From Candidatus Nomurabacteria bacterium (GTDB lineage: Bacteria > Patescibacteriota > Minisyncoccia > Phycocordibacterales > SBAW01): a stretch of 64,000 nucleotides of DNA. The notes under the pieces are model-generated. The model was not told the DNA's origin and ran no database searches. It saw only the letters and a program-made list of their open reading frames with translations. Shown here one piece after another: positions 35,434-62,993 of this stretch. Positions within the stretch are counted from its first letter, which is position 1. Each line of letters starts with the position of its first letter. Location: contig JADZGF010000016.1 of assembly GCA_020854065.1 (NCBI GenBank), forward strand, positions 20,784 to 84,783, read 5' to 3'. Position numbers and translations under genes: made by a program.

Positions 35434-35667
35434 ATGGCCGACGAAAAAGGCGGAGAAGAAGGTCCTATGACGACCGTTTGGATTCTCGGTGCACTGCTTG
35501 GCGGACTCATTGTGCTCTGGTATGTAAATGGTGGTCCTGATCGTGCAGATTTGCGTGGTATCTTTTTAGCACCACCCGCACCCCTTGGTACCGGTGAAGC
35601 ATACGGTCCGCAAATTAATGCGCCGACCGAAACTGTGCCGCAAACCATTGATCAACCTGACTACTAA
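35434..35667 (+). CDS. hypothetical small membrane protein
   Basis: 77 aa, one TM. Confidence 0.3.
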   Translation: MADEKGGEEGPMTTVWILGALLGGLIVLWYVNGGPDRADLRGIFLAPPAPLGTGEAYGPQINAPTETVPQTIDQPDY

Positions 35668-35670
35668 CCT

Positions 35671-36069
35671 ATGCTTAATCCTTTCCCCGATCTTTTAACG
35701 TATTCGTTTTTTGCACCGACACTCTTACGTTTTGCCGCTGCATGTGCATTTGCATACGGCGCATACTTTTTGTGGCAGAATCAAAAACAAATTGGGCAGA
35801 AGCGCTTCCCTATCATTGGTCACGCTCCATGGCTTGGTGGTGCGGCAGCAGTTGCACACGGAATACTTGCTGCTGCACTCGCGTTTGGATACCACACACA
35901 AATTAGCGCGCTTGCCGGTGCACTTGGTGCATTGAAAGGAATATTCTTTGCTGAGCAATATCGCGAAGTCTTCCCTTTCTCAAAAAGCACTTACTTCCTC
36001 CTCCTTTTTGTACTCCTTTCACTCTTGCTCACTGGCGCTGGTGCGCTTGCAAAAGATCTCCCACTCTAG
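35671..36069 (+). CDS. hypothetical DoxX-like membrane protein
   Basis: 132 aa, 4 TM helices. Confidence 0.35.
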   Translation: MLNPFPDLLTYSFFAPTLLRFAAACAFAYGAYFLWQNQKQIGQKRFPIIGHAPWLGGAAAVAHGILAAALAFGYHTQISALAGALGALKGIFFAEQYREVFPFSKSTYFLLLFVLLSLLLTGAGALAKDLPL

Positions 36070-36082
36070 CTAGAGTGGTTCT

Positions 36083-36544
36083 GTGATACTCGTGCTCCAC
36101 AATATACGCAGCGCCCACAACGTGGGTAGCATGTTTCGTACCGCTGACGCAGCGGGTGTGAAGCGTATTATCCTTTCTGGATACACACCGGGACCCACTG
36201 ATCCACGCGGAGTGCCACGGAGGGATTTTATAAAAGTGTCGCTTGGTGCGGAGCATTTTATTCCTTGGGATCGAAGTTCTACACTTGCGACAGCGCTTAA
36301 GAAATTAAAGAAGGAAGGATACACCATCGTCGCGGTTGAGCAGACGAAAACTTCGATAAATCTTTTTGACTACAAGCCGAAGAATAAAAAGTTGGCAGTG
36401 GTGATGGGCAATGAAGTACGCGGCATTAATACCCAAAACCTTAAGTATTGCGATGCGGCAGTGGAGATACCCATGCAGGGAAAGAAAGAGTCTCTCAACG
36501 TAGCGGTCGCCTGTGGTATAGCCCTATTTACGCTTTTGCGCTAA
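36083..36544 (+). CDS. SpoU/TrmH-family RNA 2'-O-methyltransferase
   Basis: LVLHNIRSAHNVGSMFRTADAAG...GNEVRGI...ESLNVAVACGIALF SPOUT motifs. Confidence 0.8.
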   Translation: MILVLHNIRSAHNVGSMFRTADAAGVKRIILSGYTPGPTDPRGVPRRDFIKVSLGAEHFIPWDRSSTLATALKKLKKEGYTIVAVEQTKTSINLFDYKPKNKKLAVVMGNEVRGINTQNLKYCDAAVEIPMQGKKESLNVAVACGIALFTLLR

Positions 36545-36558
36545 AATGGTGCCGTATT

Positions 36559-36631
36559 GCGCCCATAGCTCAGTTGGTAGAGCGGCTCCCTTTTAAGGAG
36601 ATGGTCCTTGGTTCGAATCCAAGTGGGCGCA
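36559..36631 (+). tRNA. tRNA-Lys (TTT), CCA not encoded
   Basis: GCGCCCA acceptor, GCTCAGTTGGTAGAGC D-arm, anticodon loop CTTTTAA, GGTTCGAATCC T-loop. Confidence 0.75.
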
Positions 36632-46894: not shown

Positions 46895-49186
46895 ATGCGC
46901 GAGTGGCGGAACGCCCGCAAAAAACTCGACCCCCTCTTCCGTAAGGCAGACGATCATTTTGACCGCGGTGTTTCTTATACCCGGCGTCATTGGCGTGAGA
47001 TCTTGGTATATGGCACTGGTGCAGGCTTCTTTCTCGGCGGCGTGCTTTTTTTATGGGCAGGAACACTCCAGCTTCCTGACCTCTCAACACTTCAGGAAAT
47101 AAAGACCGAGCAGTCGGTTAAGCTCTACGATCGCACGGGCGAGGTCTTACTCTTTGATCTTAATAGCGACGCACGCCGAACCCTTATTCCCCTCTCAGCT
47201 GTTTCGCCCTACGTTCAACAAGCAGTTGTTGCAATTGAAGATCCAGAATTCTATACACACAAAGGTATTAAACCAACCGCAATCTTGCGCGCAGTCTTCA
47301 CCAACCTCATCCAAAGCGAGTTGTTAAGCGGCCAAGGTGGTTCCACCATCACACAGCAGGTCATTAAACTTTCCGTACTTACTTCGGACAAAACAATTAC
47401 CCGCAAACTCAAAGAGTGGGTGTTGGCAATGAAACTTGAGGGTGCGATGGAGAAAGACCAAATACTCGAGCTCTATCTCAATCAGGCACCCTATGGCGGT
47501 GTGATCTACGGCGTCGAAGAGGCGTCTATGGTCTTTTTTGGTAAACACGCCTCTGACGCTACTTTGCTCGAGGCGGCATACCTCGCAGCAGTACTCCCTG
47601 CCCCAAGCCGCCTTTCCCCATACAAAACCGATGCAGAGACGGGACGCAATCAACGGCTTGAAGCACGCAAAAATCTCGTGCTCGACAAAATGTATGAGCA
47701 TGGATACATCACCGTTGAACAGCGTGATGAAGCGAAAGCGGCACAAATAGAGTTTCTTCCCCCACGTGACACCTCAATCATTGCTGCCCACTTCGTCTTT
47801 TACGTAGAAGAATACTTGGAAGAAAAATACGGCGAAGAGGCACTGCAGCGTGGCGGGTGGCGCGTCATCACTACACTCGATGCCGAACTCCAGGCTGAGG
47901 CGGAAAAGATTGTATTCAAGCACGCCATGAATAACGTGGAATCCTTTAATGCAACAAACATGGCGTTAGTGGGTGTTGATCCACAAAATGGCCAAATTCT
48001 CACCATGGTTGGATCGCGTAACTATTTCGACGATGTAATACCGGGGGCGTATAACGTTGCGGCTGCAAGTCCTGGACGACAACCAGGTTCCGCATTTAAA
48101 CCATTTGCATATGCCGAAGCATTGCGTAAAGGCTACACTCCTGAAACGGTTGTGTTTGACGTACGTACCCAGTTCTCTACTGCGTGCGAGCCTACCAACA
48201 TGACGAGTGAGGGTAACTGCTACTCCCCTGGCAACTATGATGACAACTTCCGCGGCCCCATGACACTGCGTAACGCACTCGCACAATCAATCAACGTACC
48301 TGCGGTAAAAGTACTGTATCTTGCAGGTCTCTCTGATGTGCTGCGGCTTGCAAAGGCAATGGGTATCACTACCCTCGCTGACCCTGCACGATACGGCCTC
48401 ACGTTGGTACTCGGCGGTGGCGAAGTAACTCCCCTTGATCTCACGAGTGCATATGGTGTCTTTGCGAACAACGGTGTGCGATATGAACCAAGCGCTATCT
48501 TGCGCGTTGAAGACCCAACAGGTCGTGTGATCGAGGATAATAGCCAGCCAGTGGGCTCCCAGGTACTTGATCAGCATGTGGCCGAGCAGATTAACGACAT
48601 GCTCTCCGATACAGTAGCTTCAGCACCATTAGGTCTGGGTAATTTCCGTACTTTTTCTCAAGACGTTGCCCTAAAAACTGGTACCACCAACGACTATAGG
48701 GATGCCTGGATCGTAGGCTACACTCCGAACATTGCAGTTGGCGTATGGGCAGGTAATAACGACAACTCTGCAATGGAACGTCGCACTGGTGGATTAATTG
48801 TTGCTCCGGCATGGAGTGAATTCATGCGTTTTGCACTGTCTAAACGCCCCGTCAGCGCGTTTACACGTTCGGAATGGCCCAACCCCAACAAACCAGTATT
48901 ACAAGGCAACTGGAGCAATCCAGGCCGTGATGGATTGGTGCACGAAATTCTCTATTGGGTAGATAAAAACAATCCAACAGGTCCAGAACCATTTAATCCT
49001 GCGAGTGATCCACAGTTTGAATACTGGGATCTCCCGGTACGGAATGTATATGGCGCTGCAGTTGGTTCTGGTTCCTCATCAGGAGGTTCAAATCAATCAG
49101 AGGGTCCCCTTCAGGAAATAATTCCACCAGAGTATTTCGAATCTCAAAATCAGGCACCGTCAGGAACGCCGATTATAGAAAACTAG
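46895..49186 (+). CDS. class A penicillin-binding protein (glycosyltransferase + transpeptidase)
   Basis: GT51 motifs (AVVAIEDPEFYTHKGI, GGSTITQQ); transpeptidase SxxK, SxN (SINV), KTGT. Confidence 0.85.
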   Translation: MREWRNARKKLDPLFRKADDHFDRGVSYTRRHWREILVYGTGAGFFLGGVLFLWAGTLQLPDLSTLQEIKTEQSVKLYDRTGEVLLFDLNSDARRTLIPLSAVSPYVQQAVVAIEDPEFYTHKGIKPTAILRAVFTNLIQSELLSGQGGSTITQQVIKLSVLTSDKTITRKLKEWVLAMKLEGAMEKDQILELYLNQAPYGGVIYGVEEASMVFFGKHASDATLLEAAYLAAVLPAPSRLSPYKTDAETGRNQRLEARKNLVLDKMYEHGYITVEQRDEAKAAQIEFLPPRDTSIIAAHFVFYVEEYLEEKYGEEALQRGGWRVITTLDAELQAEAEKIVFKHAMNNVESFNATNMALVGVDPQNGQILTMVGSRNYFDDVIPGAYNVAAASPGRQPGSAFKPFAYAEALRKGYTPETVVFDVRTQFSTACEPTNMTSEGNCYSPGNYDDNFRGPMTLRNALAQSINVPAVKVLYLAGLSDVLRLAKAMGITTLADPARYGLTLVLGGGEVTPLDLTSAYGVFANNGVRYEPSAILRVEDPTGRVIEDNSQPVGSQVLDQHVAEQINDMLSDTVASAPLGLGNFRTFSQDVALKTGTTNDYRDAWIVGYTPNIAVGVWAGNNDNSAMERRTGGLIVAPAWSEFMRFALSKRPVSAFTRSEWPNPNKPVLQGNWSNPGRDGLVHEILYWVDKNNPTGPEPFNPASDPQFEYWDLPVRNVYGAAVGSGSSSGGSNQSEGPLQEIIPPEYFESQNQAPSGTPIIEN

Positions 49187-50277
49187 CGATTCATTGGCAT
49201 CGCCAAATAGAGGAATGACGAATCCGATGCATCTTTTATGAGCATCGCTTTTCCAGGACCATTCGAAGAAAGCCGTACTGAATCTCCACCAATAGACTGG
49301 AGGCTATCCATGAGGTAGCGGCCATTGAACGACATAGTGACTGGCTCCCCTTCTATCGTCGCTTTGATAGTTGATACTTGCTCACCTACATCAGGATTAC
49401 GCGAAGAAAGCACCACTGCTTTTTTAGATGGTTCGATTGAGAGTGATACTTGCGCAAACTTATCTGCAAACACTGAGAGTCCTTTGAGGATATTTGCAAA
49501 CTCTTCTCGAAGCACTACTGCTTCAGTACTAAAAGATTTTGGAATAATTTGTTTGTAGTTTGGAAACGTTCCGTCCAAGAGTCGGCTGGTGTAATACAAC
49601 CCGTCAGTTTGAAGAGAAATCTGATGATCATTGTAGTAGACCTCAATGTCGCCTTTTGCCGATTCAATCACTCGAAGAAGTTCTGATGCATTTCGTGCAG
49701 GAATAAGTATTTGTGGAACTCCCCCACCTTTCAGTGGTACCACCTTCTCTGCAAGACGGAATGAGTCAGTAGCTGCGGTTGTTAACATACCACCCTCAGC
49801 GCTAATCATTACACTCTGAAGTTCTGGTTTTACTGCAGATACTGAGGCGCAATAGACCACTGATTGAATTGCTTTTATAAACTCATCTACTTTTACGGTA
49901 AAAGATTTCTCTGCAGATACCCGAGGAAGAATTGGAAAATCCTCATGTGGAATTGTTTTTATAGACGCACTTACTTGCTCAGTCTCAACCTTTAACACTT
50001 CTCCGACTATGTGCGCACTAAAATTCTTTCCTTTCGTATTCTGGAGAAAACCTGCCAATACACCTCCAGGCACTGCAACCGTTCCTGCAACTGATACTTT
50101 TGCTGGTACCACTACCTCCACACCACACTCAAGGTTAGTTGCACGTAAGGTGACTCGACTCCCCTCTGCAACAATTAAGATTGCTGCTAACACCGGAAGG
50201 TTCGGTCTCTTCTCAGTAAAACGAGCAACAACTGAAACCGCGGTGATCAGTTCTGTGAGTGTGGTTTCAAATTTCAT
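49183..50277 (-). CDS. dnaN: DNA polymerase III beta sliding clamp
   Basis: three-domain clamp of ~364 aa directly downstream of dnaA. Confidence 0.85.
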   Translation of the reverse strand: MKFETTLTELITAVSVVARFTEKRPNLPVLAAILIVAEGSRVTLRATNLECGVEVVVPAKVSVAGTVAVPGGVLAGFLQNTKGKNFSAHIVGEVLKVETEQVSASIKTIPHEDFPILPRVSAEKSFTVKVDEFIKAIQSVVYCASVSAVKPELQSVMISAEGGMLTTAATDSFRLAEKVVPLKGGGVPQILIPARNASELLRVIESAKGDIEVYYNDHQISLQTDGLYYTSRLLDGTFPNYKQIIPKSFSTEAVVLREEFANILKGLSVFADKFAQVSLSIEPSKKAVVLSSRNPDVGEQVSTIKATIEGEPVTMSFNGRYLMDSLQSIGGDSVRLSSNGPGKAMLIKDASDSSFLYLAMPMNR

Positions 50278-50398
50278 AACTTGTTATATATAAACCTATT
50301 ACTACTATTAGCGCTGTGGATAGTGGAGAAGTCGATTTTATCTTTACCAAATAACGTATTTTTATACAACCGATATCCACAAGTGTTCTAACAACAAT
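50278..50398. promoter_or_regulatory. oriC segment with DnaA boxes and AT-rich unwinding element between dnaA and dnaN
   Basis: TGTGGATAG (50315-50323) and ATATCCACA (50373-50381), each one mismatch from the TTATCCACA consensus; flanking AT-rich runs. Confidence 0.5.
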
Positions 50399-51733
50399 TC
50401 ATTTCAACATCATGCGGATCTGATTGAGCTCGTTATTCAACACGCTATCCACACGAAGATCATTCTTTATTTTCTCGCAAGAATGTATCACAGTGGTGTG
50501 GTCACGACCACCTAGTTTTTCTCCAATAGTTGGAAATGAGATACGAAAATCTTCTCGCAAAAGGAACATAATGACTTGTCGGGGACGAACCACTTCCTTC
50601 CGACGAGTCTTTTCGTAGATACTCCCCTCCTCTACTCCATAGAAGCTCGCAATAGTCTTTACTACATCCTGCACAGAGATAGCCTTTTTAACCGTCCCAG
50701 CGCCTCGTAGAAGAAGTTTTGCGTCATTAATGGTCAGTGGGTCCTGACGCATCTCAAGTTGGATAAGAAGCGTGTTTAGGGCGCCTTCCAGCTCACGTAC
50801 ATTTCCCTCTATTGCGGTTGCTAAGTAGTCGAGTACTTCGTCAGGGAGAATAACGTTATGCGCGACTGCTTTAGAGCGCACAATAGCGAGGCGTGATTGA
50901 TGATCTGGTGGAGTAACAGAGACCACCATACCTGCAGAGAGTCGTGATTTAAGACGATCTTCGAGATTTTGGATGATATTAGGGTGTTGATCTGATGAAA
51001 ACACTAATTGTTTGTTTCCATCATGGAGGTAGTTAAAAAGATGGAAGAATTCCTCTTTAATTTTGTCTCTTCCTGCAAGAAACTGGATGTCGTCCATGAT
51101 TAAGAGATCATATTGGCGGTATTTCTCCTTAAAACTCTGTACCTTGCCCGCTTGGAGTGAAGATACGTAATCCATAGAAAAACGCTCAGAGGTTACGTAG
51201 TAGACCTTCCGCTCTGGCGCCTGCATACGGAAGTGGTTCCCTACAGCCTGGATAAGGTGGGTTTTTCCTAAACCAGTCGGTCCATAGACCAGAAGTGGGT
51301 TATACGCTATGCCTGGCTTACGAATAACTGCCTGGGCAGCAGCATGGGCAAGCTCGTTAAAGGGCCCAACCACAAAGGAATTAAAGGTAAACCGAGGGTT
51401 AAGGTTGGTCTTTTGGTGCACTGCCTCGAGAGGGAGTTCTGAGGGAGCAGGTGTCATTCGTACCTCTTCAGGTACCTTTTTAGGTCCACGAGATATAACG
51501 TACTCAACTGAACGTACGCTTTCCTCGAGTGAGCGGAGGCTCCGAAGGATATCTTTGTGGAACTTAGTTGAAAGCCAGTCACGAGCGAACTGTGAGGGAA
51601 CGCCAAGGTATACGACACCCTCTTCAACGCGAACAATATGGGTATCTTTAAACCACGTATTAAAATTAGGTTTCGATATTGTGAGCTCAAGCTCGACCAA
51701 AGCGTTTTCCCATAGTTCTTTCGTCGTTGTCAT
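50399..51733 (-). CDS. dnaA: chromosomal replication initiator protein DnaA
   Basis: domain I starts MTTTKELWENALVELEL; Walker A GPTGLGKTHL; C-terminal DNA-binding domain (HTTVIHSCEKI); upstream in-frame extension to 52126 rejected because it runs antisense through rpmH. Confidence 0.9.
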   Translation of the reverse strand: MTTTKELWENALVELELTISKPNFNTWFKDTHIVRVEEGVVYLGVPSQFARDWLSTKFHKDILRSLRSLEESVRSVEYVISRGPKKVPEEVRMTPAPSELPLEAVHQKTNLNPRFTFNSFVVGPFNELAHAAAQAVIRKPGIAYNPLLVYGPTGLGKTHLIQAVGNHFRMQAPERKVYYVTSERFSMDYVSSLQAGKVQSFKEKYRQYDLLIMDDIQFLAGRDKIKEEFFHLFNYLHDGNKQLVFSSDQHPNIIQNLEDRLKSRLSAGMVVSVTPPDHQSRLAIVRSKAVAHNVILPDEVLDYLATAIEGNVRELEGALNTLLIQLEMRQDPLTINDAKLLLRGAGTVKKAISVQDVVKTIASFYGVEEGSIYEKTRRKEVVRPRQVIMFLLREDFRISFPTIGEKLGGRDHTTVIHSCEKIKNDLRVDSVLNNELNQIRMMLK

Positions 51734-51838
51734 GAGCAAAAAAGTAATATCAGGATACGCGAGCAATCCAGATGCGTCAAAATGGTCAGGCTTGTGTATA
51801 TGTTGTGGATTATTTGTGTATAGGGTAGTATTGACCTC
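51734..51838. promoter_or_regulatory. dnaA/rpmH divergent promoter region with DnaA-box-like sites
   Basis: TGTGGATTA at 51804-51812 and nearby TGTGTATAT/TGTGTATAG. Confidence 0.4.
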
Positions 51839-51973
51839 ATGTCGCAAACGTACCAACCAAAAAAGCGCAAACGCGCTCGCGCCCACGGCTTCCTTTCGCG
51901 TAAAGCGTCGCCTGGTGGTCGCAAGACGGTGCTTCGCCGCCGCCGCAAAGGACGCAGCCGCCTCAGCGCCTAA
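51839..51973 (+). CDS. rpmH: 50S ribosomal protein L34 (44 aa, absent from ORF track)
   Basis: Hand translation MSQTYQPKKRKRARAHGFLSRKASPGGRKTVLRRRRKGRSRLSA matches L34 (TFQPS..KR.R.HGFR.RM.T..GR.VL..RR.KGR..L). Confidence 0.8.
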   Translation: MSQTYQPKKRKRARAHGFLSRKASPGGRKTVLRRRRKGRSRLSA

Positions 51974-51986
51974 CGCGTAGGTATCC

Positions 51987-52283
51987 ATGTTGCCTAAAAA
52001 GAACCGCCTCACCGCTCGTGAGGTCCGTGCAACCCTTAAAGAGGGTAAAAGTGTTCGAAAAAGCAGTGTTTCTGCTCGTTTTGTGTCTACAGCAAAGGCA
52101 GGCAAGGCTGCCATAGTGGTTTCCACTAAAGTTGCCCGTAAGGCTACGGATCGTAACCGCTTGCGTCGTATGGGCTACGCCGCCCTCCCTACTCCCCTCC
52201 CGAAAGGAAACCTGGTGCTTTTTATTCAAACGCCTGAATTTAAAACTGCGGATATACTGTCCCTATGTTCAACACTTTCTTAG
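51987..52283 (+). CDS. rnpA: ribonuclease P protein component
   Basis: KKNRLTAREVRATLKEGKSV...ATDRNRLRRMG; rpmH-rnpA-yidC-jag order. Confidence 0.8.
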   Translation: MLPKKNRLTAREVRATLKEGKSVRKSSVSARFVSTAKAGKAAIVVSTKVARKATDRNRLRRMGYAALPTPLPKGNLVLFIQTPEFKTADILSLCSTLS

Positions 52284-52972
52284 TCCAGCCGATCTATAAC
52301 GCGTTCATTTTCTTAACCGGTGTTATGCCAGGCGCTGATGCAGGCCTTGCAATTATCGCCATAACCATTGTCATGCGGGTACTGCTCTATCCGCTCTATA
52401 CCTCCCAGATCCGCACACAGATCGGTATGTCGGCACTGCAGCCAGAACTTGAGGTACTGAAGGAGAAGCATAAAAACGATCGGGAGAAGATGGCCCGAGA
52501 GCAAATGGCGCTGTTTAAGAAGTACAAAGTAAACCCACTTGCTACTATTTTTGTGCTTATTATCCAGTTGGTGGTTATGCTCGCGCTCTATTTTGCGCTC
52601 TTCCATGAACAACTCCCTACAGTAGACACAGACTTCCTCTACTCGTTTGTCGAAGCACCAGCGCACATATCGACCTCATTCTTTGGTCTCCTCAATCTCC
52701 TTACCCCGCACCACATTATCCTGGCTGCACTCGTAGCGCTCTCCCAATACATCGCTATTTCCCTTACCTTGCGCCGTACCCCCGTTCCTGCCAATCTCCC
52801 TCCTGAGAAGGCGCAGGTTCAGCGGATGCAGCAAGGTCTCATGCTCTACTTCATGCCTGCCCTTATGGGTATATTCTCGTATTTCTTCCCAGGAGGCGTC
52901 GGTCTCTACTTCCTTGCAGGAAATGTGCTCTCTATAGGTCAGGAGTGGCTTATAAAACATAAATTCGCCTAA
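52265..52972 (+). CDS. yidC: membrane protein insertase YidC (short Oxa1-type)
   Basis: 5-TM core, conserved helices, C-terminal basic tail. Confidence 0.85.
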   Translation: MFNTFLVQPIYNAFIFLTGVMPGADAGLAIIAITIVMRVLLYPLYTSQIRTQIGMSALQPELEVLKEKHKNDREKMAREQMALFKKYKVNPLATIFVLIIQLVVMLALYFALFHEQLPTVDTDFLYSFVEAPAHISTSFFGLLNLLTPHHIILAALVALSQYIAISLTLRRTPVPANLPPEKAQVQRMQQGLMLYFMPALMGIFSYFFPGGVGLYFLAGNVLSIGQEWLIKHKFA

Positions 52973-52997
52973 CGGAACTTGTCTCCCCTCACCCCTT

Positions 52998-53468
52998 TTG
53001 TGTATCGTGGGGTGTATGGATACTGCAGCTCTCTCAGCATTCTCCCGGAAACTTATTGAGCAGCTCGGGTGCACCATAGAGGCGCTTGAAGTTGAGACGG
53101 GGCATCGAACTACCGTCCGCGTTACCACTCCTGATTCTAAAGAACTTATCGGTCCTGGTGGTGAACATTTGCGCGCATTAAATGCGATTGCAAAGCGCAT
53201 GGTCGAGCATGCTCATGGAGAAGAGGCTTCCTCCTTTTTTATCGACGTAAATAACTATCGAGAGCAGGAGCTTGAGGGTGTGCGTCAAAATGCACGTATG
53301 TTTGCACAGCGTGCGCGTCTTTTTAAACACGATGTTGAATTACCTCCACAAAGTGCATACGAGCGTTTAGTGGTTCACGAACTGTTTGCTGAGGATCCTG
53401 AGATAGCAACAGAATCTGCTGGCGAGGGTAAGTTTCGCCATATCGTACTTAAGTACAAAACAAACTAG
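52998..53468 (+). CDS. Jag/KhpB-like RNA-binding protein (KH + R3H domains)
   Basis: IGPGGEHLRALNAIAKRM KH-like segment and R3H (PPQSAYERLVVHELFAE). Confidence 0.7.
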   Translation: MCIVGCMDTAALSAFSRKLIEQLGCTIEALEVETGHRTTVRVTTPDSKELIGPGGEHLRALNAIAKRMVEHAHGEEASSFFIDVNNYREQELEGVRQNARMFAQRARLFKHDVELPPQSAYERLVVHELFAEDPEIATESAGEGKFRHIVLKYKTN

Positions 53469-54676
53469 AAGAGTCGTACGCCCCAGAGGCTGCGTTCACC
53501 TTTTTTAATGTAGAGGAGATATCGCTCGTCAGGTGAGAGCGCCATGTCATCTATTTCTGAGGTAATACCACCATCAGCGCTTCCAGGAATAGCGATGAGT
53601 GTCGCGTAGTTGTTGCTGTCATATGAGACGATCTGTTGCCCTACTCCCCCAGTGCCGAGATGGTATAGGTCGATGTAGTTCTCCGGAACGTATGTAGCAG
53701 CGGTGGCGCAATACGAGACGATAAATGTTCGGCTCCATATACACTGCTCAGGGAGTGGATCAAAAGAGATTGCCGCATTGGTACCACTTTGCATATTTCG
53801 TGCGTAGGTGATGCGGCCTGCGGTGCCGCCGGTCGTGTGATATACCACCCGATCTAGTCCCCAACTTGCGCTCAGTGATAGTCCTGCAGCTGAGAGGAGT
53901 GGTGTTACTACTCCACTTTCCACTTCGATAGTGAATGCCATACCCATAACCCCGTATGCAGGAGCGGTGTAGGCAAGGACGGTGTTCTGTGTGGGCCATA
54001 CAAGCTGTATTTGTGCGAATGGAAGGCTAAAAGCTTTGCGTGCCTGGGTTCCGTCGGGGTTAGCGATGTACCCGTCACTTCCTGTGGTTGTTTGCAGAAG
54101 GTATACGACCTTTGTCGCATCAGGTGAAACTGCAATGCTCTTTATATCGTTTGCCAAAAATTGGATACGTACCGGAGCTGATTGTGTTGAAGTGGTTGCT
54201 GCAGGCAGGTTAAGTAAGAGTGTTTTGAGGGCATTTTGGTTTACATACTGCAGAATTCCAGCAGGACCAACCCAGGTTACTTCTGCGACGCCAGGGATGG
54301 TGGTGTTAGAAACAACACGAGGCACCGCTCCTGGTACATCTACGGGAAGATCAAATGAGCGACCGTTATCTGCCATGACAAAGCGCGCAATGGTTGTGGT
54401 GGGGTTTAAGGTCTGTACAAACGTTGCCCCTGCAACCGGTCCGTCAGATATTTTAAATATGCGTAAGTTGCTGCCATTTTGAGCATTATTAGTGTTTGTG
54501 TTTTGGGATTGCTCTTCCCCGCTGCTGAGACTTACATCGGTTTGAGTGTTTAAGCTTCCAAAATTTTCTGGTGGGGTTTGTGGTGTTTCTTGTCTGCCAA
54601 ACAAAAACCATGACACAAGCACCAACAGTGCTGTTGTGCCGATGAGGATACCGATGAGTTTCCAGTTGAGGTTCAT
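53465..54676 (-). CDS. secreted beta-propeller (TolB/PD40-like) protein
   Basis: N-terminal signal/TM; repeated SPD..K/YL..YI blade motifs (SPDATKVVYLL, SPDERYLLYIKK). Confidence 0.4.
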   Translation of the reverse strand: MNLNWKLIGILIGTTALLVLVSWFLFGRQETPQTPPENFGSLNTQTDVSLSSGEEQSQNTNTNNAQNGSNLRIFKISDGPVAGATFVQTLNPTTTIARFVMADNGRSFDLPVDVPGAVPRVVSNTTIPGVAEVTWVGPAGILQYVNQNALKTLLLNLPAATTSTQSAPVRIQFLANDIKSIAVSPDATKVVYLLQTTTGSDGYIANPDGTQARKAFSLPFAQIQLVWPTQNTVLAYTAPAYGVMGMAFTIEVESGVVTPLLSAAGLSLSASWGLDRVVYHTTGGTAGRITYARNMQSGTNAAISFDPLPEQCIWSRTFIVSYCATAATYVPENYIDLYHLGTGGVGQQIVSYDSNNYATLIAIPGSADGGITSEIDDMALSPDERYLLYIKKGERSLWGVRLF

Positions 54677-54679: not shown

Positions 54680-55249
54680 TTATCGAGGTACGCACTGCCA
54701 ACCACCTGGTACGTAGTTTATTCGTCCAGGCGGTTGACCTGACTGGCATGCGCGGATTTCATCTCCGGCGGGTTGACTATTTTGGACAGATACTCCCGAT
54801 ACAGGAGCACTGGTAGAGGTTCCTCTACTTAGTTGTTCGAGAGCGGTGTCGAATCGATCCAAACTTATCAACTGGGGGTTTATGGTGTACAGGAGTACGT
54901 ATGAACCGAGTAGTACAACAAGGCCGTACACTGCCCGTTGCATCTGCTTTCTTCCTAAATCCTTTGATTTGGCAACATCCGATACCATATACATAATGCC
55001 GCCCCATACAAATGTTGCTACGGCAAACATGCCACCAATGACGATAAAGAGTGTAAAGGCATAGTTGAGGTACGATCCAAAATCAACACCTTGTGATCCA
55101 ATTTGTTGTCCAGGGAGTGGCTCAAGTGGTATGTAACTACATCGAGTTCCTGTGCAAAACTCCGTCTGGGTTGTGGGAGTTGTTTGCGCCTGCAGAGAAA
55201 GCGGCAAGAATACAAACAGCAGAGCGATGGTAAGGATTAGTCTTTTCAT
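54680..55249 (-). CDS. candidate VirB2/TrbC-like pilin (signal peptide + TM hairpin)
   Basis: Signal peptide ending SLQA/QT; two TM helices separated by basic loop KSKDLGRKQMQRA; position in T4SS-like cluster. Confidence 0.35.
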   Translation of the reverse strand: MKRLILTIALLFVFLPLSLQAQTTPTTQTEFCTGTRCSYIPLEPLPGQQIGSQGVDFGSYLNYAFTLFIVIGGMFAVATFVWGGIMYMVSDVAKSKDLGRKQMQRAVYGLVVLLGSYVLLYTINPQLISLDRFDTALEQLSRGTSTSAPVSGVSVQNSQPAGDEIRACQSGQPPGRINYVPGGWQCVPR

Positions 55250-56289
55250 AGATTAAATAAATTGAAAGGCGATCCGGATCCTTGGCCAAAGAGTATACGT
55301 ACTGCATTTTCTGCAGCTTGCACAAACTCTGCAGGGTTATTGTTTTGAAGAGAGACACTCAATAAAGATTCACCTTCCCCTGTTCCTGTTTGTCGCAGTG
55401 TAAGGATACCCTGCGCGGCATCAGGGCCGGTTGCTTCGGCGCCATCCAACCGCCATGCATAACTTAGTGCCCCACCTTTTTTACTCGGATTGGAATAATA
55501 AAATGGTTCGGCTTTTATTGAAATCTCGCTATCGATGAGTGAAATACCGTTAGTGAGTGCCTGATCGTATATAGGGCCCCGTAATGCATCGTGTTGGTAA
55601 AGAATGACAAGTGGTTCGGTTGTAGGAATAGAGACATACCCCACCCCTACTTTTACAGTACCTGCATATACGTCAACTTGTATATCTTCTGACGTCTTAA
55701 GTTGGTCACCGGAAAAGCGGAATGTGGTACGGCCCAAGCCTGATGCGGCTGGTACAGGTTCACCACCACGCTGCCACTGATAGGACAGGACATTAGGAGA
55801 TACACGCGATGTTCCTTGGTACACCGTTGGGAGCGCAACGACAGTGAGGGGTGAACCAGCACTATAAAGTGCTTTCCCGCGGTAAAGGGGCGGTATTGAG
55901 GTGTCCGCTTCCCACAAAAGGGTAACAGTCGAGGGACTGAAGTTAAACGTTTTATTGAAATTGCCCGCAGTTGACTCAATTGTTACTCGTATAGTTGTCG
56001 TTTTGCCAAATGCTCCGGTTGTAAAAGAGTACTGTCTCTCCCCAACCCCGCTTTTTACTACACTTCCGTCCTGGGACCAGGTTATCTTTGATTCCCCAAT
56101 AAAGCTCCCAGTCCCTTCTATGTCGATAGTTACCACCTGGTTTGCTCCTGGTGTATCGGGAGAGACAACGTAGCGCACAGGGTCTGGTACCGCTGTTTGC
56201 GCAAACAGTATCGCTGGGGCAAAGAGCCCAAGTGTTATAGCTATGTTACGCAGCTGTCGCATATGATTGATTGTTAACCCGTACTCCAT
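55246..56289 (-). CDS. secreted protein of unknown function in T4SS-like cluster
   Basis: Signal peptide, beta-rich 347-aa protein. Confidence 0.35.
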   Translation of the reverse strand: MEYGLTINHMRQLRNIAITLGLFAPAILFAQTAVPDPVRYVVSPDTPGANQVVTIDIEGTGSFIGESKITWSQDGSVVKSGVGERQYSFTTGAFGKTTTIRVTIESTAGNFNKTFNFSPSTVTLLWEADTSIPPLYRGKALYSAGSPLTVVALPTVYQGTSRVSPNVLSYQWQRGGEPVPAASGLGRTTFRFSGDQLKTSEDIQVDVYAGTVKVGVGYVSIPTTEPLVILYQHDALRGPIYDQALTNGISLIDSEISIKAEPFYYSNPSKKGGALSYAWRLDGAEATGPDAAQGILTLRQTGTGEGESLLSVSLQNNNPAEFVQAAENAVRILFGQGSGSPFNLFNL

Positions 56290-56749
56290 CGATATTTACC
56301 CGTGAGTTTTCTGCAGGTTGAGTTTCGGCACGCTCCTCGGCCTCGTCGGCCGCTTTTCGCTCCTCTTTATGGATGCTTCGAATAGTGAGTATTGTGGCAA
56401 TAGTCCACCATGGAAGGTTATTTACGCCAGGGATTATTTCTCCAAAAAGTGCAATAAAAATGCGGCGCAAGATAATAGCCTCGATTCTCGTTTTTAAGCG
56501 GTGAGAATTGCTGTTAAAGGTTATGTACATACCAAACATGTGTCCTACGCCAGCCGTAAGGCTTATTGAACCGTTTATAGCCACCCCCATAGCAATACCA
56601 AGTGGCATACTCGCCGCACTGGTGATTTGCCCCAAAATTGGAATTGCATTAACTCCTGCGAGTAACCCAATGATTGAGAGGGAGATTCCTGCCTGGAGTA
56701 TGTCTATAAATAGGGCAAAAACTATAAACGGCATGCCTTTAAGCCACAT
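56246..56749 (-). CDS. 4-TM membrane protein of unknown function in T4SS-like cluster
   Basis: 167 aa, hydrophobic core, charged C-terminal tail. Confidence 0.35.
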   Translation of the reverse strand: MWLKGMPFIVFALFIDILQAGISLSIIGLLAGVNAIPILGQITSAASMPLGIAMGVAINGSISLTAGVGHMFGMYITFNSNSHRLKTRIEAIILRRIFIALFGEIIPGVNNLPWWTIATILTIRSIHKEERKAADEAEERAETQPAENSRVNIDGVRVNNQSYATAA

Positions 56750-56753: not shown

Positions 56754-58565
56754 TTATTGTACCGCCACTTCAGCGCGCTTCTTGCGCAATGCCAACACCT
56801 GGCTTGGGTCCGAAGTAATGATCTGATCTTCGGTATATGAGGCGATCACCTTAATAGCAACGTGTTTTAAGCCTGCAAAGAAGATTCCCTCCCCTACATC
56901 TGACTCTAGGAGCAAGAATTTCTCCTCGTCCGAGAGGTTAAATGTCTTTTGCAGGGTATCAATAGTGGTCGGTGACTGTTTTAGCAGTATTTGGATGGAT
57001 GAGTTGGTGATCATCGGCAATCCATACGGTGACTTCAAGAAGTCATCAACGTCTTGGGTGATGGTGGCAAGGCCCAAGTAGTATTTACGGCCGCGCTTTG
57101 CCATACCGTAGAGGAAGCTCGCGGTGTCATCACTCTTCATCATCCACCATGCCTCATCGATAACAAGTAGGCGCTTTTTTAGGTTTTTACGCACTGCATT
57201 CCAAATGTAGTGGGTAATGAGGTACATGGCGACGGGTTTAAGGTCATCTTCCATGTCTCGAACTGAGAACACTACAAAACGCTTGTTAAGGTCGACGTTG
57301 GTTGGTTGGTTGATAAACCCTGACCACGTACCTTTGGTGTATTTAGAAAGTCTTTGCACCAAAGACTCTGACCCTTCCATTCCCGCTAACACCAATTCAA
57401 AGTCGGAAAGGAGCGGTGGCTCTATTTCTGCGAAGTTACTATCGACGGTGATGTCTTTCAGAGCGTAGGTTTCAGTAATTGCTTTATCGATGATTGCATC
57501 TTCTTCAGGGGTAAGACCGCCGAGCATGATGCGGAACATGCCGACTAGCGCCACAATGTTGCTGCGCAAAACATCTGCGGGTGACTCATCCTCACGTGGA
57601 GGTGCCAAGTCGAACGGATTGATGTGGTGCTCGGAGTTAAGCGAGATGTTGAAGTAACGTCCCCCTACTGCTTGGGAGAGGAACTCATATTCACGCTCAG
57701 GGTCGATAACAATAACTTCGGTATCAAACATGAGTGTACGCAAAATCTCAAGTTTGGTTGCATAACTTTTACCTGAACCTGATTTTGCGAAAATAACTGA
57801 GTTGTAGTTTTCAAGACTAAAACGGTCGAAGAGGACTAACGAAGCGTTGTGTCGGTTAACTCCGTAGAGAATACCTTTGTCGGAAGTAAGGTCAAACGAT
57901 ACGAATGGGAATATTGAAGAGAGAGGGCTTGAGTTGAGTTTAGAGTGGACTCCCAATTCGTCGCGTCCAAGTGGAATTACCGATTTAAATCCCTGCTCTT
58001 GTTGGAATAGTGCCGGTTTTACATATACCAAACGGCTCTCGAGCATAGACTTAATCTCGCTCTCAGACTTATCAAGTTCTTCCGCTGTGGTTCCGTATAT
58101 GGTGATGTATACGCCTACATCAAAGAGTTTCTCTTGCGCCTGCTGCAATTGATCACGGAGGGATTCAAGGTCTTGATATGCGGTGTCTAAGACTGGGTCG
58201 CGAACCAAGCCTTTCTCCTCGCGGGACATAATCTGGCTTTGCACTTCAGCCACTTTCTTTTGGAACTTCTTCAGTATCTCCCCCGAGTCGATGGGATGAA
58301 TATAAATAGATATATCGAGTACTTTGTCGAGGTTGATGATGGGAGCAAACCATGAGTCCGTAAGTGTGCGCGGGTATGACATGACAAAGAAGGTTCGAGC
58401 AATTTTGTCTCCGAGGTTTATTTCGCGCGGCGTAATCTTCAGTGCAGAAGGGGCAATAACGTCTTGAAGCTCAAGGACACCCTCCTTGTATATCTGCTCG
58501 GGCAAGATCGGCGCAATAGGCGCTTGCGAATCTCTTTGTTTTTTTAAGAAGTCAAGAAATGCCAT
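56754..58565 (-). CDS. VirB4/TrbE/CagE-family type IV secretion ATPase (C-terminal ATPase portion)
   Basis: Walker A IFAKSGSGKSYATK, Walker B LLVIDEAWWMM, motif C-like GLATITQ; start at MAFLDF. Confidence 0.8.
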   Translation of the reverse strand: MAFLDFLKKQRDSQAPIAPILPEQIYKEGVLELQDVIAPSALKITPREINLGDKIARTFFVMSYPRTLTDSWFAPIINLDKVLDISIYIHPIDSGEILKKFQKKVAEVQSQIMSREEKGLVRDPVLDTAYQDLESLRDQLQQAQEKLFDVGVYITIYGTTAEELDKSESEIKSMLESRLVYVKPALFQQEQGFKSVIPLGRDELGVHSKLNSSPLSSIFPFVSFDLTSDKGILYGVNRHNASLVLFDRFSLENYNSVIFAKSGSGKSYATKLEILRTLMFDTEVIVIDPEREYEFLSQAVGGRYFNISLNSEHHINPFDLAPPREDESPADVLRSNIVALVGMFRIMLGGLTPEEDAIIDKAITETYALKDITVDSNFAEIEPPLLSDFELVLAGMEGSESLVQRLSKYTKGTWSGFINQPTNVDLNKRFVVFSVRDMEDDLKPVAMYLITHYIWNAVRKNLKKRLLVIDEAWWMMKSDDTASFLYGMAKRGRKYYLGLATITQDVDDFLKSPYGLPMITNSSIQILLKQSPTTIDTLQKTFNLSDEEKFLLLESDVGEGIFFAGLKHVAIKVIASYTEDQIITSDPSQVLALRKKRAEVAVQ

Positions 58566-58566
58566 A

Positions 58567-59226
58567 TTATTTAACGAGTTGAATTGGTTTTTCGAGCTCG
58601 CCAGGATTGAAAAGCTTATAGAAGAGTTCGATAACCTCTTCAGTGCCAAGTGTTACCACCCGTACACCGGTGCGCACTAAGCCTTGCTCGATAACACTGA
58701 TGCGCTGTTCAATCTGGGTTCGGTATTGTTCGAACTGCTCATCGGTAAGTATGGCAGAAGTGCTCGGGCCAGTTGAAAGAAGATTTGAAAGTGCGCCACC
58801 CACTCCCCCGCCTCGCGCAACAAGTGCAGGATCATACGGCACCACGATAAAGAAGTTTTTACTCATGATGTTCGCGCGCTCGGTGAAGTCTTTGATGAAA
58901 GCAATATATTCACGGATCTGTATTTTCATAAGATCGTCGAGTTCTTTAACGTAGCGGTCTTCCAGGAGTGCAATGTATGGGCGGATATCGAGTTCTCTAC
59001 TCTCGACAAAAAACTGTACGCTAAATTCTAGTGAGTTAAGAAAGTTTTGAAATTGTCCAATAACTGCCTGTTGTTCATCTTGCGATTTAAGCGCGAGGTT
59101 AATGGAGGATGCCATAAGTACCGCACGCAGACTTCCGTCCTTGAGCACCACAATACCGTCGCGTACCTCTTTAAGTGGTACGAAATCCTGCGTTGCTTGT
59201 GATTTAACTTTAGTGTTGGTAGGCAT
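58567..59226 (-). CDS. VirB4 N-terminal-domain-like protein (separate ORF; possible split VirB4)
   Basis: DGIVVLKDGSLRAVLMASSINL...IRPYIALLEDRY resembles the VirB4 N-terminal region; its stop codon is 1 nt from the ATG of the VirB4 ATPase ORF, in a different frame. Confidence 0.45.
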   Translation of the reverse strand: MPTNTKVKSQATQDFVPLKEVRDGIVVLKDGSLRAVLMASSINLALKSQDEQQAVIGQFQNFLNSLEFSVQFFVESRELDIRPYIALLEDRYVKELDDLMKIQIREYIAFIKDFTERANIMSKNFFIVVPYDPALVARGGGVGGALSNLLSTGPSTSAILTDEQFEQYRTQIEQRISVIEQGLVRTGVRVVTLGTEEVIELFYKLFNPGELEKPIQLVK

Positions 59227-59231: not shown

Positions 59232-59684
59232 TTAAATTTGGAAACCTGCTCTGGGCTGTTGAGGCTCTTCTTGTGCCCTGTCTTTGATATTAAGCGACCA
59301 AGAGAGGTCTCGGAGTTTGCTTTCGGAGAGTTTGGGGACAGGGAGCGCCTCGGTTGGTTTCTGGCCAGGAGCCACCGCCTCTGTTGGTGCAGATTTTTGG
59401 GGAGTGCGCGGTGCCCAAAGGTAGAGCTTGCTCCCTATGTAATAGCTAAATGCGTGTTCCATAGCGACGATGAAAGGTCTGTCGTTGATTTCGTAAAATG
59501 CGAGCGCGAGAGAAAGTGCAAGAGGCGGAAGCATAAGCGGTATAGAGAGCCATAGTGGTAATACCGTAAAGAGCGCCAAGCATATACCTCCACCTCCTGC
59601 GACATAAATAAACTGCTTGAGCGTGAGTGGCCCAAAGATCTTGTCCTCGACCTCAATGAATTGGGGCACCTGGTACTGCGCCAT
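59232..59684 (-). CDS. PrgI/TcpE/VirB3-like small membrane protein
   Basis: FGPLTLKQFIYVAGGGGICLALFTVLP two-TM signature, immediately upstream of VirB4 ORFs. Confidence 0.45.
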   Translation of the reverse strand: MAQYQVPQFIEVEDKIFGPLTLKQFIYVAGGGGICLALFTVLPLWLSIPLMLPPLALSLALAFYEINDRPFIVAMEHAFSYYIGSKLYLWAPRTPQKSAPTEAVAPGQKPTEALPVPKLSESKLRDLSWSLNIKDRAQEEPQQPRAGFQI

Positions 59685-59700
59685 TACCCTTAGTATAGCG

Positions 59701-60240
59701 CTATTCTGCTGGCTCTCGGTATGGGTCGACCTTAACAATAGGTTTTTCTTGCGGTTTTGGTGCAGGAGCTACACTTGCAGTGGGTTGTGTCAGTATAGTT
59801 TCGGCGTGTACGTCGACTGGTTTTTCAACTCTCTGTACTGCTGAAGGTTGAATTGGGGTCGTTTCTGGTGGTTGAGGAGCGGAAACATCAGGGGTAACTG
59901 CAGGTTGTTCAGGATGTCGCTCTTCCATGAAGCGCTTCATAGACTCACGGATAGGTAAAAAGATTTCAGTATTTACTTCGGCTGCAAGTACTTGAGCTTT
60001 CTCGGGTGGGATATGCAATTGCTCGGCAATTTGCGGCGCAAATTCGTCTGTTCCTGCAAAACCGAGCATGACGAGGAGTGTCTCGTCTTCGAGCAAACCC
60101 ATTTGATCAATATGGAGCGCGTGTCGCTGCCCTATCTCACGGATCTTAGGTTCCCATGAGGCCGACTCTATGGCGTGCCGAACATCTGGAGGGAGTTCGG
60201 CGAGTCGCTGAGCTATTTTTGCTTGAATATCTTGTTCCAT
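59701..60240 (-). CDS. hypothetical protein with Pro-rich C-terminus
   Basis: 179 aa, helical N-half, PQPPETTPIQP tail. Confidence 0.3.
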   Translation of the reverse strand: MEQDIQAKIAQRLAELPPDVRHAIESASWEPKIREIGQRHALHIDQMGLLEDETLLVMLGFAGTDEFAPQIAEQLHIPPEKAQVLAAEVNTEIFLPIRESMKRFMEERHPEQPAVTPDVSAPQPPETTPIQPSAVQRVEKPVDVHAETILTQPTASVAPAPKPQEKPIVKVDPYREPAE

Positions 60241-60257: not shown

Positions 60258-62993
60258 CTAAGCAACATTCCGATCTTCACTTGGCGGGACATTGTCGTTA
60301 GCTGCGTTGTTTAACTGATTTTGGTCGACTCCTATATTTCCCTGTTCTGGGAGTTTTTGAGCTTTCGGTATCGTTTGTTGAGGAGTTGAAGCTAAATGCT
60401 GTGCCGTCTTTTCAGTACTTTTTACCACCTCTTTTAGTCCGCTTTGAAGTCCACGAAGTGTGTCGAGCGATTTATCATCAAGCGCAACCTTCGGCGTATC
60501 GGTCAGGCCCGGAGTGCTTGGTTTGTTATCTACATAGGATTTAACCTCAGGAGTACTTGGACGTGATACGACTTCGTTAAGGGGTAGCGGTGCTGAACGA
60601 TCGGATGATGTCACTTCTGTGCGCATTTCATCAAGTACTCGACGCACGGCCGTTTCTCCACTTATAGTGCTAGCGGCATGAGTAGTGGCGCCACTTGGGG
60701 TACTAGAAGGGACTGCGGTTCCAGCTATTGCTGGAGTTGGTGTGGTGGGGGGTGTTGGGGGCGCAGAAGCAGGAGATCCAGAGGGAGATGGTCCGCCGCC
60801 TGGGCCTCTACCCGGGCCTCCACCACCGCCTGGGCCTCCACCACCACCTCCTGGCCCACCGCTTGGTCCCCCGCCAGATAGGGGTGGGGTGGTGGCATTT
60901 TTTATGAGGCTTCTCAAACGATCCGCCTCTTCTTTAGGTGCACGAAGTTGTGCAGCGGCTTCAGCGTCCGCTGCAGATATCCAACCAGGGACTGGAAAAT
61001 GGCCTGTTGCGCCGTAGAGATTCTGCTTCGACATTATGTCAATTGAGTTTGCATAATTGCTGACGTTTCCGGAACCAGCGAGTTTTTTAGCATTATCGAG
61101 CAGAGGTTTTAGCTCGTCATCGTAGCGTTTCTTGGCTTTTTTGAGGTCACGTTCGGATATTTCACCTGAATCAAAACGAGCTTGGTCACGAGCGTAATTT
61201 TCTTCAGCAGCTTGGAGATGCATTTTGTCCACCGGCGCCATCTGTTTCAACGCTTCTTCTTGCGCTTTTTGTGTTTGTCGGTCAGTTGGCTTGAGTTTGT
61301 TTGCTTCACTAACACGTTTTGTTATACGGTCGCTGTATGATTTGACGTAACCACCAGTTGCGCCTGCGGTAGTATCAACACCAATCTTTCCAAGTCCTTT
61401 GCGAGCGCTTTCAATATTACGTACATCGAAACTCTTTTTACTCAAAGCGCCAGCCCCTCGCCACAAGCCGCCACCAATAAAACGATTTCTTGAAGCTAAT
61501 TCTTTAAGTCCTCTGCTGTTGTAGGCTGAGTTTGCAGCTGCCCCAATACTGTTGCGCATAGCCCATGCGCTGCCGCCAAAGAAAGCGCCGGTGCCTTTGC
61601 GGCTGACCCAATTGGTAAAGGTGCCTGCTGCTGTTGCACCCATTACTCCTACTTTGTCGGCGGCGCGCATACCAATATAGAGCATGGCAACCACAAAGCC
61701 GAGACGTATAGCAACGTTGGCGATACTAGCAGCGATGATTGATATAGCTGACGCAGTGTTTCCTGTATTTAAATCGCTTAAATCGCTAATAATGGACTGT
61801 GTTAGACCTCCTGCTGCTCCGGTAGGATTGAGATCCTTCATCACGAGTGAGATGAAGAGAAAGATAAAGAGGAATATGACTGGATAAAAGGTGTGGGTAA
61901 TAAGATATCTCTGCCACAAATCATAGTATTTACTCGACAAGGAAGTTGTTTTTGCGAGGAATGCCAGTGGTGATGCAACGATAAGGAACCACAGCACCAC
62001 GATGCGTGCTAAGAATTTAATTCCCGCTGCCAAAAACATTACAGCCAGGATAAAGTACATTGCGCCAACAGCAATATAAATAAACGAGAGTGTAAGAAAT
62101 ACATTGATTCCACCACCCACTCCTCTGTTTTGGTCCTTGTACCACTTGTCGAAAATGGCCGTACTAAAGAGTCCTTGCATGTTGAGTCCGTTCATAATCG
62201 GATGCGTAAGGTCTTTGGTGCGCTCGAAAGTTTTATTATTGCTTGTGAGAAATTGGGATGTGCTATTTATCGTACTTCCACCACGCGTATCTCCTAAAGT
62301 GTCCGCCAATGTCCTGCCGTCTGTTGGTACGGCGTTATAAAACTGCACCGCCAAAATGTTTCCCGCATCAATTACGAGACGAGTGAAGAAGAAGGAGAAA
62401 TTAATAATGAGCGCCATTACGATAACCCATGCAAGCATGCGCATGGTGCCACCTGACTCAGCTCTAAGTAATACGGTGTAGGCGATATAGACTAGCGCCA
62501 AAATAAAACCCATATTGGCAAGGTCGCGTGCCATAGTCCACCCTTGTGAGATAAAGCCCTGTGCATACGCTAAGCTGTTTAGTGCAAGACTCACTGCAAT
62601 ATTGAAGAAGTAGGCACCAATAAAAGCGAAAGTTGAACCTATGCCAACGGTAAATACGTAAATAACATTAGAGAGACAGAGGTCCCATGTTGAAGGACTG
62701 AATGAACAGCCGGTAGTGCCGTTTCGAGTAGCGGATACCGCGTCTCGTGTTCTCTGGGCAACCGCTTCTCTTAAGGCGGTTTGTGATTCAACGGTATCCA
62801 ACGAACTCAGGTAAGCGTTTTCTTCTGCGGTGCACGCCGACCCGCCTGAAGAGTTAACACACGCATCTGAGAGCTGCGATGAGCTTGTGATAGCAGCTAA
62901 AGTCGAGGATGGAGAACTTAATAGGATTATAAATCCCAACACAAATCCACCCACAAGGCTTATTATGAGTTTTTTTGTTACAAAGTTTGGCAT
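60258..62993 (-). CDS. VirB6/TrbL-like polytopic membrane protein with long C-terminal extension
   Basis: 911 aa; signal/TM, extracellular segment, at least 8 TM helices, then ~450-aa hydrophilic tail with Gly/Pro-rich tract. Confidence 0.45.
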   Translation of the reverse strand: MPNFVTKKLIISLVGGFVLGFIILLSSPSSTLAAITSSSQLSDACVNSSGGSACTAEENAYLSSLDTVESQTALREAVAQRTRDAVSATRNGTTGCSFSPSTWDLCLSNVIYVFTVGIGSTFAFIGAYFFNIAVSLALNSLAYAQGFISQGWTMARDLANMGFILALVYIAYTVLLRAESGGTMRMLAWVIVMALIINFSFFFTRLVIDAGNILAVQFYNAVPTDGRTLADTLGDTRGGSTINSTSQFLTSNNKTFERTKDLTHPIMNGLNMQGLFSTAIFDKWYKDQNRGVGGGINVFLTLSFIYIAVGAMYFILAVMFLAAGIKFLARIVVLWFLIVASPLAFLAKTTSLSSKYYDLWQRYLITHTFYPVIFLFIFLFISLVMKDLNPTGAAGGLTQSIISDLSDLNTGNTASAISIIAASIANVAIRLGFVVAMLYIGMRAADKVGVMGATAAGTFTNWVSRKGTGAFFGGSAWAMRNSIGAAANSAYNSRGLKELASRNRFIGGGLWRGAGALSKKSFDVRNIESARKGLGKIGVDTTAGATGGYVKSYSDRITKRVSEANKLKPTDRQTQKAQEEALKQMAPVDKMHLQAAEENYARDQARFDSGEISERDLKKAKKRYDDELKPLLDNAKKLAGSGNVSNYANSIDIMSKQNLYGATGHFPVPGWISAADAEAAAQLRAPKEEADRLRSLIKNATTPPLSGGGPSGGPGGGGGGPGGGGGPGRGPGGGPSPSGSPASAPPTPPTTPTPAIAGTAVPSSTPSGATTHAASTISGETAVRRVLDEMRTEVTSSDRSAPLPLNEVVSRPSTPEVKSYVDNKPSTPGLTDTPKVALDDKSLDTLRGLQSGLKEVVKSTEKTAQHLASTPQQTIPKAQKLPEQGNIGVDQNQLNNAANDNVPPSEDRNVA
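60770..60900. repeat. Gly/Pro-rich low-complexity tandem repeat inside the VirB6-like gene
   Basis: cctgggcctccaccacc repeated; encodes GGGPSGGPGGGGGGPGGGGGPG. Confidence 0.5.

Follow-up and report, generated by a model that had tools for sequence, protein, structure and literature searches.

In the R388 structures the N-terminus of VirB4, the ATPase of type IV secretion systems (T4SS), docks to VirB3 and to the membrane complex. Fusions of VirB3 to VirB4 exist in some conjugative systems and show how fluid the domain limits of the VirB3/VirB4 inner-membrane module are in evolution. Canonical VirB4 (VirB4/TrwK/TraC; R388 TrwK, PDB 7O41 and 8RTB; profile TIGR00929) is a single chain. Here we examine a locus at which VirB4 appears to come in two parts. 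It lies in a stretch of 64,000 nucleotides (nt) from a Candidatus Nomurabacteria genome (assembly GCA_020854065.1, contig JADZGF010000016.1, positions 20,784 to 84,783), the whole of which is called the window below. The locus consists of a 219-amino-acid (aa) open reading frame, ORF A, directly followed by a 603-aa one, ORF B.

The closest described systems are the chromosomal T4SS of Patescibacteria. The T4SS component met most often in these bacteria is TrsD, which is remotely homologous to the N-terminal part of VirB4; 2,272 homologues of it were counted, of which 1,664 adjoin virB4 (Quiñonero-Coronel et al. 2025, Microb Genom, PMC12102498). According to the same study the T4SS of Patescibacteria is often found near dnaA, no VirB3–VirB4 fusion was found in Patescibacteria, and the TrsD homologue of Candidatus Southlakia epibionticum ML1 is essential. 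In the essential T4SS cluster of this organism, SEML1_0006-0019, Wang et al. 2023 (PMC10633639) recognised pilins and neither a relaxase nor a coupling protein; VirB4 and TrsD go unnamed in the main text of that paper. A second precedent is provided by the pGO1/pSK41-type staphylococcal plasmids (MPF_FATA, NF041427), where the gene for a VirB4-like ATPase with a short N-terminus (TrsE/TraE) is directly preceded by a small gene (~200 aa) whose product is homologous to the N-terminus of VirB4 (TrsD/TraD). Among the MPF_FATA prototypes TrsD occurs in the pGO1 subclass only (PMC12102498).

The locus studied here shares with the chromosomal T4SS of Patescibacteria (PMC12102498, PMC10633639) a TrsD-like gene immediately before virB4, PrgI/VirB3-like and VirB2-like pilin genes in the same cluster, and a position adjoining dnaA, dnaN and yidC. 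It differs from them in nothing substantive, and the window is one more instance. The paired arrangement of small gene and short ATPase is also that of the staphylococcal plasmids, but the similarity to these is remote (41.5 bits against a cut-off of 200; 25–33% identity by tblastn), and the system in the window is chromosomal, origin-proximal and accompanied by pilin genes, with no relaxase noticed among the ORFs scanned. Compared with R388 TrwK, the N-terminal fold (ORF A), the ATPase core (ORF B) and their colinearity are alike, whereas the VirB4 of the window is two polypeptides. The VirB3–VirB4 fusions differ in being fusion rather than fission, PrgI in the window being a separate gene 5 nt upstream of ORF A. 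With a probability of roughly 0.93, ORF A and ORF B represent a natural form of VirB4 that is ancient and encoded by two genes, an arrangement that is already known.

Results and discussion

Both genes lie on the minus strand. ORF A (58567-59226) encodes the TrsD/TraD-like protein of 219 aa, which has no transmembrane-like segment, is soluble and ends in ...PIQLVK before a TAA stop codon. ORF B (56754-58565), whose product begins MAFLDFLKK..., encodes the VirB4-like T4SS ATPase. Across the junction (58563-58569, minus strand) the coding strand reads ...GTT AAA TAA t ATG GCA..., that is, the stop codon of ORF A, one spacer base and the start codon of ORF B, with ORF B in frame +1 relative to ORF A. 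An earlier reading of this DNA, made without database searches (the sequence-only reading), had given these coordinates and sizes, the TAA-t-ATG junction and the different frames exactly. It had also assigned a Walker A/B ATPase core to the 603-aa ORF, and both motifs were located: Walker A as GSGKS at ORF B residues 263–267 (57765-57779, minus strand) and the Walker B region as VIDEAW at residues 468–473 (57147-57164, minus strand). Of the DGSL..I.L.G motif that it had seen in ORF A, DGSL is present at residues 30–33. The remainder is only loosely matched, the protein continuing RAVLMAS with V, M and S instead of I, L and G. Upstream of the ORF B ATG the frame stays open to a TTG at 58649, which would give a protein of 631 aa and an 83-nt overlap with ORF A. 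This start was rejected; in relatives the frame often opens just 1–3 codons before the ATG. Because the longer extension is not conserved among relatives, the start of ORF B is placed at the ATG at 58565.

ORF B matches the Pfam families P-loop_TraG (3.5e-27) and AAA_10, and also the NCBIfam model for VirB4-like conjugal transfer ATPases of the CD1110 family (391 bits against a cut-off of 325). Only positions 185–733 of the 752 in the CD1110 profile are spanned. In a search against solved structures, residues 111–550 align to TrwK residues 286–734, and residues 229–585 match the VirB4 C-terminal domain (PDB 4AG5, 4.4e-42). The protein shares 71–94% identity with VirB4 from 79 Patescibacteria genomes. 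To judge from these matches, ORF B is a VirB4-like ATPase that is without the first N-terminal module and keeps the rest of the N-terminal domain together with the C-terminal P-loop ATPase domain.

ORF A matches the TrsD/TraD family of NCBIfam (NF041427) with E 1.3e-10 and 41.5 bits. In the same collection it matches positions 98–233 of 894 in VirB4_plasma, the VirB4 of mycoplasma integrative and conjugative elements, and positions 2–116 of 752 in CD1110. When 83 diverse members of the ORF A family were compared in this way, the N-terminus of VirB4_plasma was matched by all 83, TrsD by 71 (counted at E ≤ 1e-3; best 8.5e-13), CD1110 by 60 and TIGR00929 (VirB4_CagE) by 29. An AlphaFold (AF2) model of ORF A from this diverse 83-sequence alignment has a predicted local distance difference test score (pLDDT) of 89.4; it supersedes a run on a shallow alignment (16 sequences, 80–90% identity), for which the pLDDT was 42.8. 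The top 14 Foldseek matches of the model in the PDB are all R388 TrwK/VirB4 chains (E 1e-4 to 5e-3, TMq 0.51–0.59), and the next match has an E of 0.2.

The link between ORF A and TrwK in the PDB came from fold comparison only, as the ORF A family profile found no relevant match among PDB sequences, the best (E 0.96) being an unrelated reductase. A Pfam scan of ORF A was uninformative with E limits of 0.01 and of 10 alike and did not return PF26593 (TraC-like), the family that precomputed annotation assigns to a 100%-identical protein (P0001) and to all 120 best homologues. Since the scan missed a family that these annotations assign, the missing Pfam match is no evidence against homology. We conclude that ORF A corresponds approximately to the first ~175–190 residues of canonical VirB4, the N-terminal TraC-like module. 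By its sequence it is a remote homologue of staphylococcal TrsD and no strict member of NF041427.

Joined end to end, ORF A and ORF B give a single colinear alignment in which residues 8–771 cover positions 4–724 of the 792 in TIGR00929. Because the joined pair aligns as one stretch to the VirB4_CagE profile, ORF A and ORF B are complementary, colinear parts of one VirB4. The segment that ORF B lacks is exactly that supplied by ORF A: the CD1110 match of ORF B starts at profile position 185, and TrwK residue 286 corresponds to ORF B residue 111. By extrapolation the break falls at about TrwK residue 175–190, inside the canonical N-terminal domain and not at the boundary between the N- and C-terminal domains. 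The N-terminal domain of VirB4 is present, though divided between ORF A and ORF B. The single polypeptide of ~800 aa that characterises VirB4 is not encoded, a stop codon and a separate ATG intervening in all 80 genomes described below. The NCBIfam matches, the 83-member family, the fold and the colinearity all bear out the sequence-only reading in taking the 219-aa ORF for a VirB4 N-terminal-like protein; it had allowed that profile searches might find this protein unrelated to VirB4 N-domains, and they match it to VirB4 N-termini.

A local look at the junction also suggests two quite different explanations. In the first, a continuous virB4 of ~822 aa has been broken at 58566, through a frameshift that makes it a pseudogene or through an assembly or sequencing indel. 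The adjacent ORFs are 1 nt out of frame and their summed length is that of VirB4, and one fused homologue does exist (P0208, below). In the second, programmed recoding by a +1/-1 frameshift or by stop read-through would yield full-length VirB4, and here both the offset of 1 nt and the richness of the junction in A/T (AAATAATATG) can be cited in favour. We weighed both against the related loci. Eighty were fetched from species-representative genomes of GTDB (Adlerbacteria, Nomurabacteria, Paceibacterota, Parcubacteria and others); one of them runs off its contig, and the counts given here are for the window plus 79 loci (n = 80).

The 80 genomes contain no fusion of ORF A and ORF B. The ORF A homologues (209–228 aa) all terminate at a stop codon (TAA in 59, TAG in 15, TGA in 6) and vary in length at the C-terminus. 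All 80 ORF B homologues (599–682 aa) start with ATG, which aligns to residue 1 of the window ORF B in nearly all; among the most divergent loci there are a few whose alignment begins at residue 6 or 20. The spacer between the genes ranges from 1 to 400 nt with a median of 4, the 1-nt spacing of the window being found in 18 genomes, and ORF B is in the same frame as ORF A in 21, in +1 in 40 and in +2 in 19. A broken gene accounts poorly for a split that is present in every genome with differing spacers and frames, for an in-frame stop in 21 genomes, which no indel can explain, or for an ORF A of variable C-terminal length next to a conserved ORF B ATG. Recoding would need a conserved frame relation and a slippery sequence, whereas all three frames occur, spacers reach 400 nt and in every genome ORF B starts from a homologous ATG of its own.

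Two further observations count against a pseudogene or indel. The window ORF A is 100% identical to a protein of a Candidatus Nomurabacteria metagenome-assembled genome (MAG), and the length is constant at 219 aa in close relatives (90–99% identity) that were assembled independently; more than 7,700 homologues are detectable, of which the best 120 are all 218–227 aa and 80–100% identical. Between the window and its relatives synonymous divergence (pS) is ~0.8, which is saturated, while non-synonymous divergence (pN) is 0.14 for ORF A and 0.085 for ORF B, giving pN/pS values of 0.175 and 0.107. These values indicate that both genes are under strong purifying selection. We therefore regard a broken virB4 as having a negligible chance of being correct, and programmed recoding as equally far-fetched. 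No frameshift, indel or recoding signal can give rise to such a pattern of spacers and frames, and all three are effectively ruled out.

A genuine two-polypeptide VirB4 is thus what stands of the four explanations that the sequence-only reading had listed; the frameshifted pseudogene, the programmed recoding and the sequencing indel do not survive the spacings and frames in 80 genomes. Its picture of one gene split by a stop and a 1-nt offset, taken as a lesion, must likewise be given up, 1 nt being one of many spacings (1–400 nt, in all three frames). The comparison that it had proposed, of orthologous clusters as split or fused, found them split in all 79 related loci. Shine-Dalgarno-like motifs (GGAG, GAGG or AGGA at -18 to -4) precede ORF A in 4 of 79 cases and ORF B in 2 of 80. 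As such motifs are nearly absent before both genes, the lack of one ahead of ORF B is nothing special and carries no specific information on coupling. These counts suggest that the lineage uses little Shine-Dalgarno initiation, at least for the ORF A and ORF B genes.

A profile of the ORF A family was searched against 1.84 billion cluster representatives and gave 2,570 matches at E ≤ 1e-3, 270 of them at E ≤ 1e-30. Among the best 150 of the 2,570 representatives, 18 are shorter than 190 aa, 96 have 190–260 aa, 35 have 261–450 aa and one has 797 aa. In 35 of these 150 (within P0155-P0269) the conserved domain is followed by a low-complexity C-terminal tail of 60–230 aa, rich in Pro, Gln, Thr and Ala; the window ORF A has no such tail. 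We considered whether the relatives of 261–450 aa could be truncated fusions with ORF B and rejected this, the tails being of low complexity and without similarity to ORF B.

The 797-aa representative, P0208, is an in-frame fusion of ORF A and ORF B (locus L083, 544-2937, in MAG GCA_964615945.1, contig CAZTUR010000004.1). Its ORF B part is 57% identical to the window ORF B; a short linker joins the two parts, and the first ~28 residues of ORF B are missing. The gene order, PrgI-VirB4-...-yidC-rnpA-dnaA, is that of the window. The fusion is genuine-looking and lies on a single contig. Whether a real fusion or an assembly error, it fits ORF A and ORF B as one functional unit.

Three observations weigh against reading the pair as one divided VirB4. 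The TrsD score of ORF A (41.5 bits) is far under the NCBI curated cut-off of 200. The TrsD homologues of Gracilibacteria do not adjoin virB4 (PMC12102498). Long disordered tails are present in 35 of 150 representatives, so that the ORF A module may function with a degree of independence. The last two favour an alternative in which ORF A is an autonomous accessory that resembles the VirB4 N-domain, for example a T4SS adaptor or regulator, and is not a stoichiometric piece of the VirB4 protomer. Such an accessory would leave it unexplained that ORF B is without exactly the segment found in ORF A and that the pair is colinear with full-length VirB4; the natural fusion P0208 and the invariant adjacency across the 80 genomes examined also speak against it. 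We consider the accessory role improbable, although less so than a broken or recoded virB4.

ORF A and ORF B are translated independently, with termination at the TAA of ORF A and initiation at the conserved ATG of ORF B. The R388 structures (7O41, 8RTB), together with general knowledge of T4SS, suggest that the two polypeptides would associate non-covalently to form a VirB4-like protomer. By analogy with the same structures, the ORF A module would play the role of the VirB4 N-terminus and contact VirB3/PrgI and the membrane complex. So little space between PrgI, ORF A and ORF B would favour co-expression or co-translation from one mRNA, in balanced amounts.

Outside Patescibacteria, tblastn located genes resembling ORF A on 203 plasmids of Bacillota; 130 of the plasmids are predicted to be conjugative, and several of the genes are annotated TrsD/TraD. 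On the two plasmids that were examined the small gene is directly upstream of a VirB4-like ATPase of 620–657 aa, the two genes overlapping by 11 nt in Pontibacillus and lying 22 nt apart in Mesobacillus. The cluster of the Pontibacillus megaplasmid NZ_CP062975.1 (L081, 1249-7563) comprises a Mbov_0395-family pilin-like protein, a 779-aa protein, a small protein, a TrsD-like protein (274 aa), a CD1110-family VirB4 and a peptidoglycan endopeptidase. Its order is strikingly like that of the window, and it may serve as a comparator from outside the candidate phyla radiation for the origin of the Patescibacteria system.

The remainder of the T4SS cluster surrounds the gene pair on the minus strand. 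Upstream of ORF A is the gene for a PrgI-family (VirB3-like) membrane protein (59232-59738; Pfam PrgI, 2e-09) with two transmembrane-like segments. Its ORF is listed from a TTG, and the real start is likely the ATG at about 59684 (MAQYQ...). Beyond it are genes for a 179-aa protein (59701-60240) and for a polytopic membrane protein of 911 aa (60258-62993) with about nine hydrophobic segments and no family match, which is a candidate for the VirB6-like channel by position alone. Directly downstream of ORF B is a small membrane protein of 167 aa without a family match (56246-56749); locus L083 has a 163-aa gene at the equivalent position and the same order of PrgI followed by VirB4. Next come a 347-aa protein (55246-56289), a VirB2-like T4SS pilin (54680-55249; Pfam T4SS_pilin 4.8e-08, above the cut-off) and a 403-aa protein (53465-54676). 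Family scans of 15 neighbouring ORFs, a part of the window, turned up no relaxase or coupling protein.

Adjacent to the cluster are the YidC and R3H/Jag genes (52265-53468, plus strand), dnaA (50399-52126, minus strand; listed as 575 aa from a GTG start) and dnaN (49183-50277, minus strand). The cumulative GC-skew has its minimum at ~52-54 kb, a signal that rests on just ~10 kb at the window end. From its gene content and skew this region looks like a classical origin region. The T4SS cluster to its right is entirely on the minus strand, and the layout of L083 is likewise convergent. With the origin located there, the cluster would be transcribed towards it, head-on to the rightward fork. The listed dnaA ORF is probably over-extended, as DnaA profiles begin at residue ~137; the space so freed, including 51987-52283 (plus strand, 98 aa), is the place expected for rpmH/rnpA by synteny with L083. 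Three DnaA-box-like 9-mers, each with one mismatch to TTATCCACA, cluster at 50315-50453, around the 3' end of dnaA and the intergenic region that separates it from dnaN; in the window as a whole 26 such matches are observed against 13.7 expected. Elsewhere, eight tRNA genes on both strands are found within ~10.6 kb (26022-36631; Rfam gathering matches), and no other RNA family reached the threshold in the Rfam scan of the window.

Conclusions

The pairing of TrsD and virB4 in the window is real, is ordinary for the lineage and has already been described (PMC12102498). To what is known we add the fold match of the TrsD-like protein to TrwK/VirB4, the colinearity of ORF A and ORF B with one profile, a rare natural fusion, and the statistics of spacing and frame. 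In annotation the junction calls for no pseudogene or frameshift flag, and 'TrsD-like VirB4 N-terminal module' is a suitable name for the 219-aa 'hypothetical protein'. The divided N-terminal domain of VirB4 is also a clean target for structural work on assembly.

The window is another instance of the origin-proximal T4SS of Patescibacteria, which is essential in the sole species tested. The role of a free-standing VirB4 N-terminal module, sometimes long-tailed, is a question for the whole family and is not specific to this locus. Somewhat speculatively, and against the odds as we see them, the free-standing module may be functionally exploited in Patescibacteria, either through a stoichiometry or timing of its own with PrgI and the membrane complex or as a docking platform. 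The latter idea arises because the disordered tails are possible only with a free C-terminus. Were the module exploited in this way, the essential T4SS of the epibiont would be mechanistically unlike single-chain VirB4 machines.

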